Positions 6,493 through 11,198 of a stretch of DNA of 38,348 nucleotides are shown piece by piece. The stretch comes from a virus (lineage: Duplodnaviria; Heunggongvirae; Uroviricota; Caudoviricetes): IMG/VR virus record IMGVR_UViG_2609459797_000003; one strand, given 5' to 3'. Both the position numbers and the translations under genes were made by a program. Every line of letters starts with the position of its first letter. Within the stretch, counting starts at the first letter, position 1. The notes beneath the pieces are model-generated. The model was not told the DNA's origin. It saw only the letters and a list, made by a program, of their open reading frames with translations, and did no database searches.

Positions 6493-7167
6493 TTAGGCTT
6501 TGATTTTGTATCTTCTTGGTTTTCCTGAGAAAATCACTGTACCAATTATAGAGCAATTACCGTTGATCTTAATGTAAGGCTCAGGCCAGTTTGGGTTTAA
6601 CGCTTTGAGATAACGCTGTGTCCCATCTTCTATCAACCTTTTGAAGGTGGTTTCACCTGTATCGTGCATCAATGCAATAACGTCGTCACCGTGGCAGGCA
6701 GGTACTTCAGGATCGACAAAAATCATGTCTCCCGGGCGGTACTCATCAATCATTGAATCACCTATCACCCGCAAGATATAAGTCATTTCCCCACAGGGTA
6801 CAGGGCAGGGATACGTTTCTGCTGTGCTCAAATCAACCTCAGAATATCCAACTTCTTTCCATGCTCCGGCCTGTACCCATGATATGACAGGGACTAATGT
6901 GATTTGTTTATTAGTGATTGAAACATCAGGTTTTTTTGTGATGTTCGTTGTCTGGTGTTCTTGATCGAGCCATCCGACAGGCAGGTCGAAACATTTTTCG
7001 ATGTGTCGTGCCATGCTGTCACCGATATTTTTAGTAGCACCATCTCCCATAAACCTGCTGGTCTGGGTTGGCTCGCGATCAATCATAGTGGCAAAGGAAG
7101 AATTCCCGCCAACACCATCTCTCAGTTTTCTGGCGTTAGACCGCCGGATGTCATGGATTGTTTTCAT
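6493..7167 (-). CDS. CI-like prophage repressor (HTH + S24 LexA-type peptidase domain)
   Basis: 224 aa; C-terminal 'ILRVIGDSMIDEYRPGDMIFVDPE...ALMHDTGETTFKRL' is the Ser/Lys autopeptidase signature of CI/LexA; divergent from a Cro-like gene. Confidence 0.85.
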   Translation of the reverse strand: MKTIHDIRRSNARKLRDGVGGNSSFATMIDREPTQTSRFMGDGATKNIGDSMARHIEKCFDLPVGWLDQEHQTTNITKKPDVSITNKQITLVPVISWVQAGAWKEVGYSEVDLSTAETYPCPVPCGEMTYILRVIGDSMIDEYRPGDMIFVDPEVPACHGDDVIALMHDTGETTFKRLIEDGTQRYLKALNPNWPEPYIKINGNCSIIGTVIFSGKPRRYKIKA

Positions 7168-7489: not shown

Positions 7490-8059
7490 ATGAGGCTAAT
7501 CGTGGGTAAGCATCACTGGAAAATAGAAAAACAGCCTGAGTGGTACGTGAAAGCTGTCAGAAAAACTATCGCGGCGTTGCCGGGTGGTTACGCTGAAGCG
7601 GCTGACTGGCTCGATGTAACAGAAAACGCTTTATTCAACCGCCTTCGTGCAGATGGCGATCAGATTTTCCCGCTGGGATGGGCAATGGTTTTACAGCGTG
7701 CTGGTGGCACTCACTTCATTGCTGATGCTGTGGCGCAGTCTGCAAATGGCGTCTTTGTGTCTCTTCCTGACGTCGAGGATGTGGACAACGCCGATATTAA
7801 CCAGCGTCTGCTGGAAGTCATTGAACAGATCGGCAGTTATTCAAAACAGATTCGTTCAGCAATCGAAGACGGTGTAGTGGAACCGCATGAGAAGACAGCA
7901 ATTAACGACGAGCTGTATCTCTCAATTTCGAAGCTGCAGGAGCATGCAGCACTTGTCTACAAAATTTTTTGCATTTCAGAAAGTAATGACGCCCGCGAGT
8001 GTGCAGCTCCGGGCGTCGTGGCGTCGATTGCTTCTGGTTGTGGAGAAACTAACGCATGA
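7490..8059 (+). CDS. early regulatory protein, YdaT-like/CII-like (tentative)
   Basis: 189 aa directly after the Cro-like gene, the position CII/YdaT-type proteins occupy in lambdoid prophages; family assignment from memory only. Confidence 0.5.
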
Positions 8060-8394
8060 ACAGTTTAACAACACACTACCGTCGCTCGCAACTGATTGCG
8101 CTTCCTGTACCGGGTGGAAAAGCGAAGGTGGAATATTGCTATGCAGTGAATGTACCAGGTGACAGGGAAATTGTAACCCACAGCTTTGCAGAGTGGGCTG
8201 TGGGTGATTTCAACCGGCAGAAGGAGACAGTCCTTTGCGACAAGTTAACCGCTGGTTCAAAGATCACTACGGAGTGCCCGTCAGAGTCATTCGTTGGGAG
8301 CCGGAAACACAACGAGTTATCTACCTCCGCGAAGGCTATGAGCATGAGTGCTTCAGCCCGCTCGAACAGTTTCGTCGTAAATTCAGGGAAATAG
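8056..8394 (+). CDS. hypothetical protein; C-terminal half of uncertain frame
   Basis: N-terminal ~55 aa read as a plausible protein; the Ser-rich low-complexity tail reads like out-of-frame sequence, while an alternative frame (8235..8414) reads as protein. Confidence 0.35.
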
Positions 8395-8403
8395 AGGTCG
8401 GTC

Positions 8404-9345
8404 ATGAGCACTAAATTAACCGGCTATGTATGGGATGGTTGCGCTGCATCAGGCATGAAATTATCCAGCGTGGCAATTATGGCCCGCCTGGCTGATTTCA
8501 GTAATGACGAAGGTGTGTGCTGGCCATCAATTGAAACTATTGCCCGTCAGATTGGCGCGGGGATGAGTACCGTCAGGACGGCTATCGCACGGCTGGAAGC
8601 AGAAGGCTGGTTAACGCGTAAGGCGCGTCGCCAGGGTAACCGCAATGCGTCGAATGTTTATCAGCTTAACGTTGCGAAGCTTCAGGCAGCGGCATTTTCT
8701 CAACTGTCAGATTCTGACCCGTCAAAATCTGACGCATCAAAATCTGACCCGTCAAAATTTGATGCGTCGAAATCTGGCAAAAAAGCGGGTTTTCACCCGT
8801 CAGAATCTGGCGGGGATCCGTCAGTAAAATCAAAACATGATCCGTCAGATAAAAAACCTTCTCGTCCGGACGCTTCGCAACCGGACACGCAGACGGATGA
8901 ACAGGATTTTTTAACTCGCCATCCTGATGCGGTTGTATTCAGCCCTAAAAAGCGCCAGTGGGGAACGCAGGATGATTTGACCTGCGCACAGTGGCTCTGG
9001 AAAAAAATCATCGCCCTGTACGAGCAAGCCGCCGAATGTGACGGCGAGGTGGTTCGTCCCAAAGAACCGAACTGGACAGCCTGGGCAAACGAAATTCGCC
9101 TGATGTGTGTGCAGGATGGTCGTACTCACAAACAAATCTGCGAGATGTACAGCCGCGTCAGCCGCGATCCGTTCTGGTGCCGTAACGTGCTCAGCCCGTC
9201 GAAGTTGCGGGAAAAATGGGATGAGCTTTCCCTGCGCTTATCACCGTCCGTCAGCACGTACACCGAAAAACGCGAAGACCCGTACTTCAAATCCAGTTAC
9301 GACAACGTGGACTACAGCCAGATCCCGGCAGGATTCAGGGGGTGA
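8404..9345 (+). CDS. replication initiator (O-like, winged-helix N-domain) with internal iterons
   Basis: N-terminal 'LTGYVWDGCAASGMKLSSVAIMARLADFSNDEGVCWPSIETIARQIGAGMSTVRTAIARLEAEGWL' is the prophage replication-protein HTH; internal 15-bp tandem repeats encode 'SDPSKSDASKSDPSKFDASKS'. Confidence 0.6.
   Translation: MSTKLTGYVWDGCAASGMKLSSVAIMARLADFSNDEGVCWPSIETIARQIGAGMSTVRTAIARLEAEGWLTRKARRQGNRNASNVYQLNVAKLQAAAFSQLSDSDPSKSDASKSDPSKFDASKSGKKAGFHPSESGGDPSVKSKHDPSDKKPSRPDASQPDTQTDEQDFLTRHPDAVVFSPKKRQWGTQDDLTCAQWLWKKIIALYEQAAECDGEVVRPKEPNWTAWANEIRLMCVQDGRTHKQICEMYSRVSRDPFWCRNVLSPSKLREKWDELSLRLSPSVSTYTEKREDPYFKSSYDNVDYSQIPAGFRG
8707..8850. repeat. iteron-like tandem 15-bp repeats (putative ori) inside replication gene
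   Basis: Five consecutive in-frame units 'TCAgATtCTGACCCG / TCAAAATCTGACgCa / TCAAAATCTGACCCG / TCAAAATtTGAtgCG / TCgAAATCTGgCaaa' at 8707-8781 plus degenerate copies to ~8850. Confidence 0.6.
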
Positions 9346-9347
9346 TC

Positions 9348-9836
9348 ATGAGTCTTTTGAATGAAGTTCAGAAATTCATTGAAGCCCATCCGGGATGTAC
9401 TTCCGGAGACATTGCGGATGCTTTTGCAGGTTACTCACGGCAGCGCGTTCTGCAGTCAGCAAGCAAGTTACGTCAGAGTGGGCGTGTGGCTCACCGTTGT
9501 GAAGGAGATACACGCAGACATTTCCCGCGCCTGACTGAGAGAGCGCAGGAACCGGAACCACAACCAGTTCGAGAAACCAGACCTGTGCGCAATTTCTATG
9601 TCGGCACTAACGATCCCCGTGTGATTTTGTGCCTGACCCGCCAGGCGGAAGAACTGGAGTCCAGGGGCTTATACCGTCGTGCTGCAACCGTGTGGATGGC
9701 GGCATTCCGTGAAAGCCACTCCCAGCCAGAACGAAACAATTTTCTGGCGCGTCGTGAGCGGTGCTTACGGAAAAGCAGCAAGCGCGCTGCATCGGGTGAA
9801 GAGTGGTATCTGTCAGGGAATTACGTGGGGGCTTAA
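9348..9836 (+). CDS. PerC-like regulator domain protein (YfdN-like, tentative)
   Basis: C-terminal 'LTRQAEELESRGLYRRAATVWMAAF' resembles the PerC/Pch family core motif; ATG 2 nt after the upstream stop. Confidence 0.45.
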   Translation: MSLLNEVQKFIEAHPGCTSGDIADAFAGYSRQRVLQSASKLRQSGRVAHRCEGDTRRHFPRLTERAQEPEPQPVRETRPVRNFYVGTNDPRVILCLTRQAEELESRGLYRRAATVWMAAFRESHSQPERNNFLARRERCLRKSSKRAASGEEWYLSGNYVGA

Positions 9837-10489
9837 TGAGTAATAAATATTGCCAGGCGCTGGTGGAACTGCGGAACAAACCAGCCCATGAACTGAAGGA
9901 AGTGGGCGATCAGTGGCGCACGCCGGACAACATTTTCTGGGGAATTAACACCCTGTTTGGCCCGTTTGTTCTGGATCTGTTCACTGACGGTGATAACGCC
10001 AAATGTGCCGCGTATTACACGGCGGAAGACAACGCGCTGGCGCATGACTGGTCAGAACGTCTTGCGGAGCTTAAAGGTGCTGCCTTTGGTAATCCCCCAT
10101 ACAGCCGCGCCAGTCAGCATGAGGGGCAATACATCACCGGCATGCGTTACATCATGAAACATGCCAGTGCCATGCGTGATAAGGGCGGGCGCTATGTTTT
10201 CCTGATCAAAGCTGCCACCAGCGAAGTGTGGTGGCCGGAAGATGCAGATCATATTGCTTTTATTCGCGGGCGTATTGGTTTTGAACTGCCTGTCTGGTTT
10301 ATCCCGAAAGACGAGAAGCAGGTACCGACAGGAGCTTTTTTCGCTGGTGCTATTGCTGTTTTTGACAAGACCTGGAAGGGACCGGCAATCAGCTACATCG
10401 GGCGCGATGAACTTGAGGCATGTGGTGAGGCGTTTCTGGCGCAGGTTCGCCAGCAGGCGGAAAAACTGGTCAGGGAGATGGCGGCATGA
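9836..10489 (+). CDS. phage DNA N6-adenine methyltransferase (Dam-like)
   Basis: 'GNPPYS' is the (D/N)PPY catalytic motif of N6-adenine methyltransferases; TAATG overlap with the upstream gene. Confidence 0.8.
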   Translation: MSNKYCQALVELRNKPAHELKEVGDQWRTPDNIFWGINTLFGPFVLDLFTDGDNAKCAAYYTAEDNALAHDWSERLAELKGAAFGNPPYSRASQHEGQYITGMRYIMKHASAMRDKGGRYVFLIKAATSEVWWPEDADHIAFIRGRIGFELPVWFIPKDEKQVPTGAFFAGAIAVFDKTWKGPAISYIGRDELEACGEAFLAQVRQQAEKLVREMAA

Positions 10490-10812
10490 CGACGTTAACT
10501 CAATGCCAGCAGCAGGTGCTGGATATGCTGATTTCTTATCAGAAAGAACGTGGCTTCCCGCCAACCAATCAGGAGGTGGCAACCATGCTGGGATACCGTT
10601 CGGTGAATGCAGCGGTGGAGCATCTTCGCGCACTGGAGAAAAAAGGCGTCATCACGATAAAGCGTGGCGTGGCCCGGGGGATAACGCTTCATACCGCGGT
10701 GAAGGACGACGACAGCGAGGCGGTCGGGATTATCCGCGCACTGCTTGCCGGTGAGGAAAACGCAAGGCTGCGTGCAACCCACTGGTTACATGAGAGGGAC
10801 CTGAAAGTATGA
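10486..10812 (+). CDS. LexA N-terminal DNA-binding domain protein (no peptidase domain)
   Basis: 'QQQVLDMLISYQKERGFPPTNQEVATMLGYRSVNAAVEHLRALEKKGVI' aligns with the LexA winged-helix domain; ORF ends at 108 aa without an S24 domain. Confidence 0.7.
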   Translation: MTTLTQCQQQVLDMLISYQKERGFPPTNQEVATMLGYRSVNAAVEHLRALEKKGVITIKRGVARGITLHTAVKDDDSEAVGIIRALLAGEENARLRATHWLHERDLKV

Positions 10813-11198
10813 AGCTGATCCTGCCTTTTCCGCCCAGCGTGAACACGTACTGGCGACACCCCAACAAAGGGGCGTTTGCTGGTAAGAGCCTGATAAGCGC
10901 GGCGGGGCGAAAATTCCAGAGCGCGGCGTGCGCAGCAATAGTTGAGCAGTTACGTCGTCTGCCGAAACCAACGTCGGCACCTGCTTCAGTGGAGATCGTG
11001 TTGTTTCCTCCGGATAACCGGATCCGCGATCTGGACAACTATAACAAGGCTCTGTTTGACGCCCTGACCCACGCGGGTGTGTGGGAAGACGACAGACAGG
11101 TGAAAAGAATGCTGGTGGAGTGGGGACCGGTTATCCCGAAAGGGAAGGTCGAGATCACTATCAGTAAGTATGAGAAACCGGCGGGGGCAGCCGCCTGA
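10809..11198 (+). CDS. rusA: Holliday junction resolvase RusA
   Basis: 129 aa; 'PPSVNTYWRH...' and 'DLDNYNKALFDALTHAGVWEDDRQV' match the RusA pattern; typical position upstream of Q. Confidence 0.85.
   Translation: MKLILPFPPSVNTYWRHPNKGAFAGKSLISAAGRKFQSAACAAIVEQLRRLPKPTSAPASVEIVLFPPDNRIRDLDNYNKALFDALTHAGVWEDDRQVKRMLVEWGPVIPKGKVEITISKYEKPAGAAA

Follow-up and report, generated by a model that had tools for sequence, protein, structure and literature searches.

A probable replication origin of iteron type embedded in the O-like initiator gene of an SfII/SfIV-type lambdoid prophage

Why does the gene for a phage replication initiator carry in its middle a run of nearly identical 15-bp units that are read in frame: for the sake of the peptide or for the sake of the DNA? 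The question is raised by the O-like replication initiator gene at 8404-9345 of the virus record IMGVR_UViG_2609459797_000003, referred to here as the window (the whole stretch of 38,348 nucleotides that was analysed), which is an SfII/SfIV-type lambdoid prophage. The initial annotation had seen in these repeats the arrangement of the lambda O gene and ori-lambda. This proposal is supported by conservation at the DNA level, by the homology of the C-terminal domain to that of lambda O, by the equivalent position of the repeats and by their covariation with the N-terminal domain: very probably, the prophage replicates from an origin that is embedded lambda style in the gene of its own initiator, and the 15-bp repeats are the iterons of this origin.

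The array and its place in the initiator

The elements of the gene that bear on this question are the following (sites on the DNA are given without a strand):

8404-9345, plus strand: O-like replication initiator gene, 313 amino acids (open reading frame; full-length match to PHROG 391, 'replication initiation O-like', E 1e-135)
8404-8703, plus strand: N-terminal winged helix-turn-helix (wHTH) domain, residues 1-100, presumed to bind the iterons (Pfam HTH_36, residues 23-70, E 4e-11)
8706-8778: five tandem 15-bp iterons with cores at 8706-8718, 8721-8733, 8736-8748, 8751-8763 and 8766-8778 (from the located copies and synonymous-site conservation)
8799-8811: sixth iteron, GTCAGAATCTGGC, 33 bp beyond iteron 5 and fixed in position, with the wobble-invariant codons TCA GAA TCT in 64-65 loci
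8791-8856: block conserved at the DNA level, TTT CAC CCG TCA GAA TCT GGC GGG GAT CCG TCA GTA AAA TCA AAA CAT GAT CCG TCA GAT AAA AAA
8815-8824 and 8839-8848: two GATCCGTCAG boxes, each with a Dam site and an iteron half-site
8820-8859: A-rich low-stability tract, candidate unwinding element (GC content 0.325, AT skew +0.41)
8899-9246, plus strand: C-terminal domain, residues 166-281, a homolog of the lambda O C-terminal domain (hhalign; well folded in the AlphaFold2 (AF2) model)
9316-9342, plus strand: C-terminal tail SQIPAGFRG (8 of 9 identities in BLASTP to Escherichia coli DnaT residues 171-179, the DnaT C-terminus)

The five consecutive units of the initial annotation were located by Tandem Repeats Finder, by a repeat search and by matching of the core. 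Tandem Repeats Finder calls a period of 15 at 8713-8776 (4.3 copies, 81% matches) or, alternatively, a period of 30 (88% matches); the repeat search yields a single 15-bp register with copies at 8707, 8722, 8737 and 8752, running on to 8781, and an additional copy at 8785-8814. The 13-bp core, GTCARAWTCTGAC, starts at 8706, 8721, 8736, 8751 and 8766 in the tandem part and once more at 8799. When it was searched as GTCAAAATCTGAC on both strands of the 38 kb, these six positions were the only matches with at most two mismatches; with at most three, 21 matches are found versus 10.8 +/- 3.3 expected, a number reached in 0 of 100 shuffles. No second repeat cluster able to serve as an origin was detected within the window.

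A feature absent from the initial annotation is the symmetry of the units: every core is a dyad, GTCAGA-N-TCTGAC. Because each unit is a dyad, and with neighbouring cores 2 bases apart, inverted half-sites alternate unbroken along the array, at 7- and 8-bp spacing. The 'further degenerate copies' reported previously correspond to two degenerate half-sites 3' of the array, GTCAGT at 8820 and GTCAGA at 8844, which lie within the two GATCCGTCAG boxes, 24 bp apart. Read in the frame of the initiator gene, the units encode SDPSK or SDASK, in line with the SDPSK coding described before, and the iterons together occupy codons 101-136 of 313 (8706-8811), between the two domains of the protein. Two short open reading frames overlapping the array (8645-8827, plus strand, and 8666-8833, minus strand) were dismissed as by-products of the repeats.

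In the AF2 model, the N-terminal domain comprises helices 43-50 and 54-66, a wing at 70-88 and a further helix at 90-102; a Foldseek search of the PDB returned generic MarR/ArsR/TFE winged helices as its closest folds and no match for the C-terminal domain, and sequence searches of NCBIfam and the PDB gave sub-threshold wHTH regulators and nothing more. Many members of the MarR and ArsR families bind palindromic sites as dimers. The C-terminal domain aligns in hhalign with lambda O residues 171-274 (probability 99.6%, E 5e-24, 41% identity), a domain which in lambda interacts with P. Between these confident folds, residues 102-163 have a predicted local distance difference test (pLDDT) score below 50, which bears out the earlier remark that the repeats may form a flexible linker; the probable origin therefore lies in a linker which, being disordered, can tolerate codons imposed by the DNA. 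Homologs range from 274 to 338 amino acids, and the differences in length fall in this disordered segment.

Directly after the array lies the least stable 30-mer of the gene (8825-8854), and the wobble bases in the surrounding tract 8820-8859 are invariant. DnaA boxes were not found inside the initiator gene, the nearest one-mismatch matches being at 7780 and 8039. In the window as a whole, DnaA-box-like 9-mers, TTATCCACA, with at most one mismatch number 18 versus 7.7 +/- 2.6 expected, and no shuffle reaches 18. The phage itself encodes a Dam methylase (9803-10489), and a Dam site is present in each GATCCGTCAG box; the origin might be under a control linked to methylation or to SeqA.

Selection on the DNA and covariation with the N-terminal domain

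A homolog scan with one genome per species provided 80 loci, of which 64-66 belong to the N-terminal subfamily of the window. The sampled genera are Escherichia, Citrobacter, Enterobacter, Kluyvera, Pantoea, Providencia, Proteus, Yersinia, Rahnella, Tatumella and others. For a codon test, units were picked by their peptide alone (x-S-[KEN]-x-[DEGV]; 292 units from 66 loci), and their codon usage was compared with that elsewhere in the same genes:

First Ser codon: TCA in 92% of units, 22% in the background
Lys codon: AAA in 100% of units, 68% in the background
Second Ser codon: TCT in 86% of units, 12% in the background
Asp codon: GAC in 79% of units, 45% in the background

The amino acid of the spacer codon is free to vary (A, P, T, G, L, R or V), and bases 1 and 3 of this codon carry ~0.45 bit of information, whereas the core's three wobble positions carry 1.3-1.5 bit. 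The silent positions are more conserved than the replacement positions, which argues for selection on the nucleotide sequence. Copies of RTCARAWTCTGAY with at most one mismatch occur in all 64 of 64 loci, 2-6 per linker (median 4), and are spaced by exactly 15 bp in 158 of 198 cases; 262 matches fall in 10.4 kb of linker versus 6 in the remaining 401 kb of locus sequence.

The block that follows the tandem units behaves in the same way. Its wobble information averages 1.80 bit versus 0.64 bit at conserved-residue columns of the N-terminal domain (64 loci, Mann-Whitney p = 5.5e-11), and 1.66 versus 0.41 bit when the comparison is limited to four- and six-fold degenerate sites; the C-terminal domain reaches 0.95 bit, in a smaller and more redundant set. 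At residues identical to those of the window, the window's codon is used with a frequency of 0.88 in the block versus 0.43 in the N-terminal domain, the block having the higher value in 63 of 63 loci. The N-terminal domain, which flanks the array, is saturated at synonymous sites. These comparisons show strong purifying selection on the DNA of the array and of the following 66 bp, whatever the peptide encoded there. The opposite pattern, a conserved peptide over unconserved DNA, had been named beforehand as the observation that would speak against an origin; on checking, the DNA proved to be more strongly conserved than the peptide.

The type of repeat follows the type of N-terminal domain, in three subfamilies:

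Subfamily A (window): recognition helix ST[VI]R, wing GNRN, half-sites GTCAGA/TCTGAC; all ~64 loci
Subfamily B: recognition helix STVI, wing GQR, half-sites TTCAGA/TCTGAA; 3 loci
Subfamily C: recognition helix T[TS]V[SKT], wing GGR, half-sites GTCAA-N3-TTGAC; 10 loci

The period is 15 bp in all three, and the GATCCGTCAG boxes are likewise kept in all three, whatever the type of iteron. From A to B the half-sites change symmetrically, both halves being altered, which is what binding of a dimer to a dyad would predict. Subfamily B has different peptides (PETER in an E. coli prophage, SERSA and SECST in Klebsiella) over the common DNA motif CAGAnnCTGAACGT.

In many loci the C-terminal domain has been swapped with the N-terminal domain, the array and the block kept; the junction lies after '..QPD', at ~8885. 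Conversely, where the same C-terminal domain is joined to an unrelated N-terminal domain, the gene has an array of its own at the equivalent place:

L066, 3147-3262: five 23-nt palindromic units, followed by an A-rich stretch
L015, 3116-3273: 23-nt units
L067, 3222-3381: seven units at 21-24 nt

A 23-bp period is out of codon phase, so that no peptide repeat can be encoded by it. Taken across these loci, the array travels with the N-terminal domain when the C-terminal domain is exchanged.

The number of tandem units is plastic. The 313-residue form is by far the most abundant cluster (5414 member sequences), and natural length variants (P0007, 303 amino acids; P0048, 337; P0015, 287; P0018, 282) differ from it by whole repeat units. 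P0015 and P0018 are deletions of exactly 78 and 93 bp, in which iteron 2 (78 bp) or iteron 1 (93 bp) is joined to iteron 6 as the right-hand recombination partner. Because of this plasticity, the fixed sixth iteron and the conserved block may be the core of the element, and the tandem units may serve as an affinity or cooperativity module. In lambda, two iterons and the A/T tract suffice in vitro (PMC7466680).

Proposed origin function and rival explanations

Initiation at this origin could proceed in the following manner: After rightward early transcription of the gene, the N-terminal wHTH domain would bind the alternating GTCAGA/TCTGAC half-sites and the fixed sixth site; the dyad symmetry of each site makes dimers the probable binding form. 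An O-some-like nucleoprotein complex would thereby be built over ~105 bp and strain the adjacent A-rich tract at 8820-8859, leading to its opening. The C-terminal domain and the tail would then bring in the host replicative helicase. Recruitment is probably of the host DnaB-DnaC directly, because there is no lambda-P-type gene and the protein ends in the C-terminal motif of DnaT.

Several points weigh against this assignment. The centre-to-centre spacing of 15 bp is much tighter than the 20-24 bp of lambda, and the packing of dimers at this distance is not obvious. The instability of the A-rich tract is no more than moderate (GC content 32.5%, its least stable 30-mer ranking in the top 4.4% of the window). 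Close relatives carry one to approximately ten SDxSK units, so that no particular number of tandem units is required. The covariation comes from three clades and amounts to about two independent changes, not 77. The N-terminal domain of the window protein is outside the Pfam family of lambda O. There is no helicase-loader partner gene next to the initiator in the window, and the later steps of the scheme are conjecture. Finally, a literature search for a binding or replication assay on this type of initiator found none; it likewise returned no description of an SfII/SfIV/SfV origin or of embedded iterons in HTH-type initiators, and the 12-13-mer motif matched unrelated animal and human gene papers only.

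The explanation closest to the peptide is that the repeats are a mere low-complexity linker made by slippage, in which the similarity of the units reflects recent duplication and concerted evolution. The predicted disorder of the region, the variation of copy number by whole units among close relatives and the 78- and 93-bp deletions, which fit recombination between repeats, all agree with it. It is nevertheless very improbable, as conservation is higher at synonymous positions than at the replacement positions of the spacer codon, in genera that have a synonymously saturated flanking domain, the non-repeated block at 8791-8856 is equally constrained, subfamily B keeps its DNA motif despite the peptides PETER, SERSA and SECST, and related initiators have 23-bp arrays out of codon phase. 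The same saturation bears on the notion that the conserved DNA is a module-boundary 'linker' kept alike by repeated homologous recombination between mosaic genomes, without a selected function. Phage mosaicism is well known, and a domain-swap junction indeed lies just to the right, after '..QPD' at ~8885; the N-terminal domain, however, is contiguous in all loci and yet synonymously saturated, so that, in 63 of 63 lineages, recent transfer would need to have involved no more than ~150 bp. Moreover, the motif differs systematically by N-terminal subfamily, and recombinational homogenisation would erase such differences. The probability left to this explanation is minimal.

If the DNA is selected, it might still be selected for something other than initiation: the repeats could be a cis-acting site with a non-origin role, for example as an operator for the initiator (autoregulatory or acting as a roadblock), as a site of titration or incompatibility, or as the target of some other protein of the phage or the host. 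The constraint on the DNA and the covariation with the wHTH domain show selection of the kind seen at binding sites, not what the binding does, and plasmid iterons commonly serve control as well as initiation (see the review PMC4980987). Such a role in place of an origin is judged improbable, because the repeats stand where the lambda ori does, in a protein related to lambda O by its homologous C-terminal domain, the A-rich low-stability tract adjoins the array, the 38-kb window has no other origin-capable repeat cluster and the layout recurs in every N-terminal variant of the family. Alternatively, the inverted half-sites might act in the mRNA, folding into a structure by which translation of the initiator transcript or its stability is regulated. 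Folding of 8690-8870 as RNA gives a z-score of -4.96 versus shuffles, a value that any palindrome array would give and that was judged uninformative; single hairpins would have stems of 4-6 bp and loops of 1-5 nt, a unit number varying from 2 to 6 and more would destroy a specific long-range fold, and the conserved positions follow the motif of each unit and not pair-wise covariation. There is hardly any probability in favour of such an mRNA element.

Known systems, helicase recruitment and genomic setting

For the origin reading, the closest precedent is lambda. In the ori of lambda, which lies in O (also in the Stx phages 933W and P27), the iterons are situated, as in the window, in the initiator reading frame between the DNA-binding and the C-terminal domain, each iteron is an imperfect dyad and an A/T-rich tract is found on the same side, to which the candidate tract of the window would correspond (PMC7466680). 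In both phages the gene stands in the early rightward operon after cII, and the C-terminal domains are homologous; the four annotated iterons of lambda (39034-39118) correspond to codons 117-145 of 299, those of the window to codons 101-136 of 313. The differences concern the N-terminal domain, which in lambda O is Phage_rep_O (PF04492, E 6e-36) and in the window protein HTH_36, with no match to PF04492 at E <= 0.01, and the geometry of the sites: a 13-bp core at a 15-bp period in codon phase in the window, iterons of 18-19 bp spaced by 20-24 bp in lambda. The copies number 5+1 in the window, four in lambda and six in the Stx phages, and the A-rich tract is weaker in the window than in lambda. 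Furthermore, the window has no P gene and its initiator has a DnaT-like tail, whereas lambda O ends in ...TDWIYGVDL. To the right of the A/T-rich ori tract of lambda, a segment TTCGTCAGAGAATTCTGGCGAATCC (39160-39184, L085 661-685, SSENSGES) resembles CCCGTCAGAATCTGGCGGGGATCC of the window (8795-8817, PSESGGD) in both peptide and codons; the latter comprises the sixth iteron and its flank. The resemblance may reflect common descent either of a DNA element or of the peptide.

Other replicons share parts of this design. Gene 18 of P22 and gene 18 of phage L also have repeats inside an O-like initiator, of type-specific sequence and read as an origin from sequence alone (PMC8022706); these are four repeats of ~20 bp in P22 and six of 11 bp in L, with sequences and periods that differ from those of the window (PMC8022706), and a DnaB-type helicase (gene 12) stands beside the initiator in both phages, which the window lacks. 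Initiators of the SfV/mEp460 type and other O-like initiators (L066, L015 and L067) resemble the window protein in their lambda-O-like C-terminal domain and GFRG tail, and in an array directly upstream of the C-terminal domain with an A-rich stretch after it. They differ in their unrelated N-terminal domains, in their periods of 21-24 bp (not multiples of 3 in L066 and L015) and in their repeat sequences. Iteron plasmids (F RepE, R6K pi, pPS10 RepA) likewise place tandem initiator-binding repeats by an A/T-rich unwinding region and use a winged-helix initiator (PMC4980987). Their iterons are direct repeats of 17-22 bp, bound by monomers with two winged-helix domains and located outside the rep gene, in contrast to the single wHTH domain and the dyad-symmetric sites inside the reading frame of the window. 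A Rep_3-type Pfam match was not found in the initiator, for which there is a weak sub-threshold match to RP-C (E 0.005).

The layout as such is textbook lambda biology and will not surprise a specialist; what is particular to the origin in the window is the type of N-terminal domain, the iteron and the unusually tight 15-bp in-frame period. The assignment is of use in three respects: (i) it provides a precise origin annotation (iterons, conserved core and candidate unwinding tract) for SfII/SfIV/SfV-type serotype-converting prophages of Shigella and E. coli and for many enterobacterial relatives; (ii) synonymous-site conservation in a disordered linker offers a practical locator of gene-embedded origins; (iii) the three natural pairs of initiator and iteron specificity lend themselves to the study of how a single winged-helix domain reads its site.

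How the helicase might be brought to this origin is suggested by the end of the protein. When the initiator is compared with DnaT in hhalign, the tail alone aligns (E 1e-4), and little or no variation is seen in the family at the tail residues P308, G310, F311 and R312. The genes downstream of the initiator in the window (9342-11198) include no lambda-P, DnaC or DnaB-like gene. Across the homologous loci, tail type and neighbouring loader are distributed as follows:

Tail ..GFR(G), 55 loci: lambda-P homolog within 3 kb downstream in 0; DnaC homolog downstream in 1 (L067, immediately after the gene)
Tail W-acidic-L, 7 loci: lambda-P homolog directly after the gene in 7 (at L007, 39% identity, E 7e-45); DnaC homolog in 0

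The W-acidic-L tail is comparable to the end of lambda O, ...TDWIYGVDL. The DnaT-like tail may capture the host DnaB-DnaC, which is no more than a lead. The DnaC homolog that follows the GFR(G) initiator of L067 echoes the host dnaT-dnaC operon.

The recruitment of DnaB-DnaC by DnaT has been described as unknown (PMC5778457; PMC13377028, a structural paper of 2026), and an initiator family that combines a lambda-O-like C-terminal domain with a DnaT-like tail and lacks a loader gene makes this question accessible to tests. A more far-reaching proposal, which is tentative and on balance unlikely, is that of a distinct lambdoid origin design: the half-sites, packed at alternating 7- and 8-bp spacing (15-bp period), are perhaps coated by a continuous filament of wHTH dimers, and a phage loader may not be needed because the disordered tail, a copy of the last nine residues of host DnaT, captures DnaB-DnaC directly. 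If this were true, the tail would also point to the surface of DnaT that recruits DnaB-DnaC in replication restart.

The surroundings of the gene are those of a lambdoid early region:

6493-7167, minus strand: cI-like repressor, upstream of the initiator
7490-8059: CII/CP76-like gene, upstream of the initiator
8235-8414: DUF4222 gene, overlapping the initiator start by 11 bases
9342-9836: PerC-like gene, downstream of the initiator
9803-10489: Dam methylase, downstream of the initiator

Beyond the methylase, a LexA-like gene and RusA follow downstream. The initiator gene has 98-99.9% DNA identity to genes of SfII, SfIV and several E. coli phages, among them vB_EcoM-689R6, in which its homologs are annotated as replication protein O or primosomal protein, and it is 100% identical in a Shigella flexneri chromosome (L001). 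A lead to gene 15 of phi80, given by a Pantoea homolog named 'Replication protein 15', was dropped, as no phi80 is among the best 60 of 147 phage protein records.

Matches in plasmid collections are, with one exception, prophages in mis-labelled chromosomes or megaplasmids. The exception, L087 (NZ_CP148542.1, 15,977 bp, circular, deposited as an E. coli plasmid), consists of a lambdoid early-right and lysis segment only, with cI-like, cro, O-like (1675-2634; 52% identity, a different initiator subtype), ATP-binding loader-like, RusA, Q and lysis genes, and with no plasmid replicon type given. Either a lambda-dv-like replicon or an assembly artefact is conceivable, and the record was not used as evidence.

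Many related records (E. coli, Klebsiella, Rahnella and Pantoea) likewise have DUF4222 annotated beside the initiator, and this constant pairing suggests a role of DUF4222 in replication or in its control.

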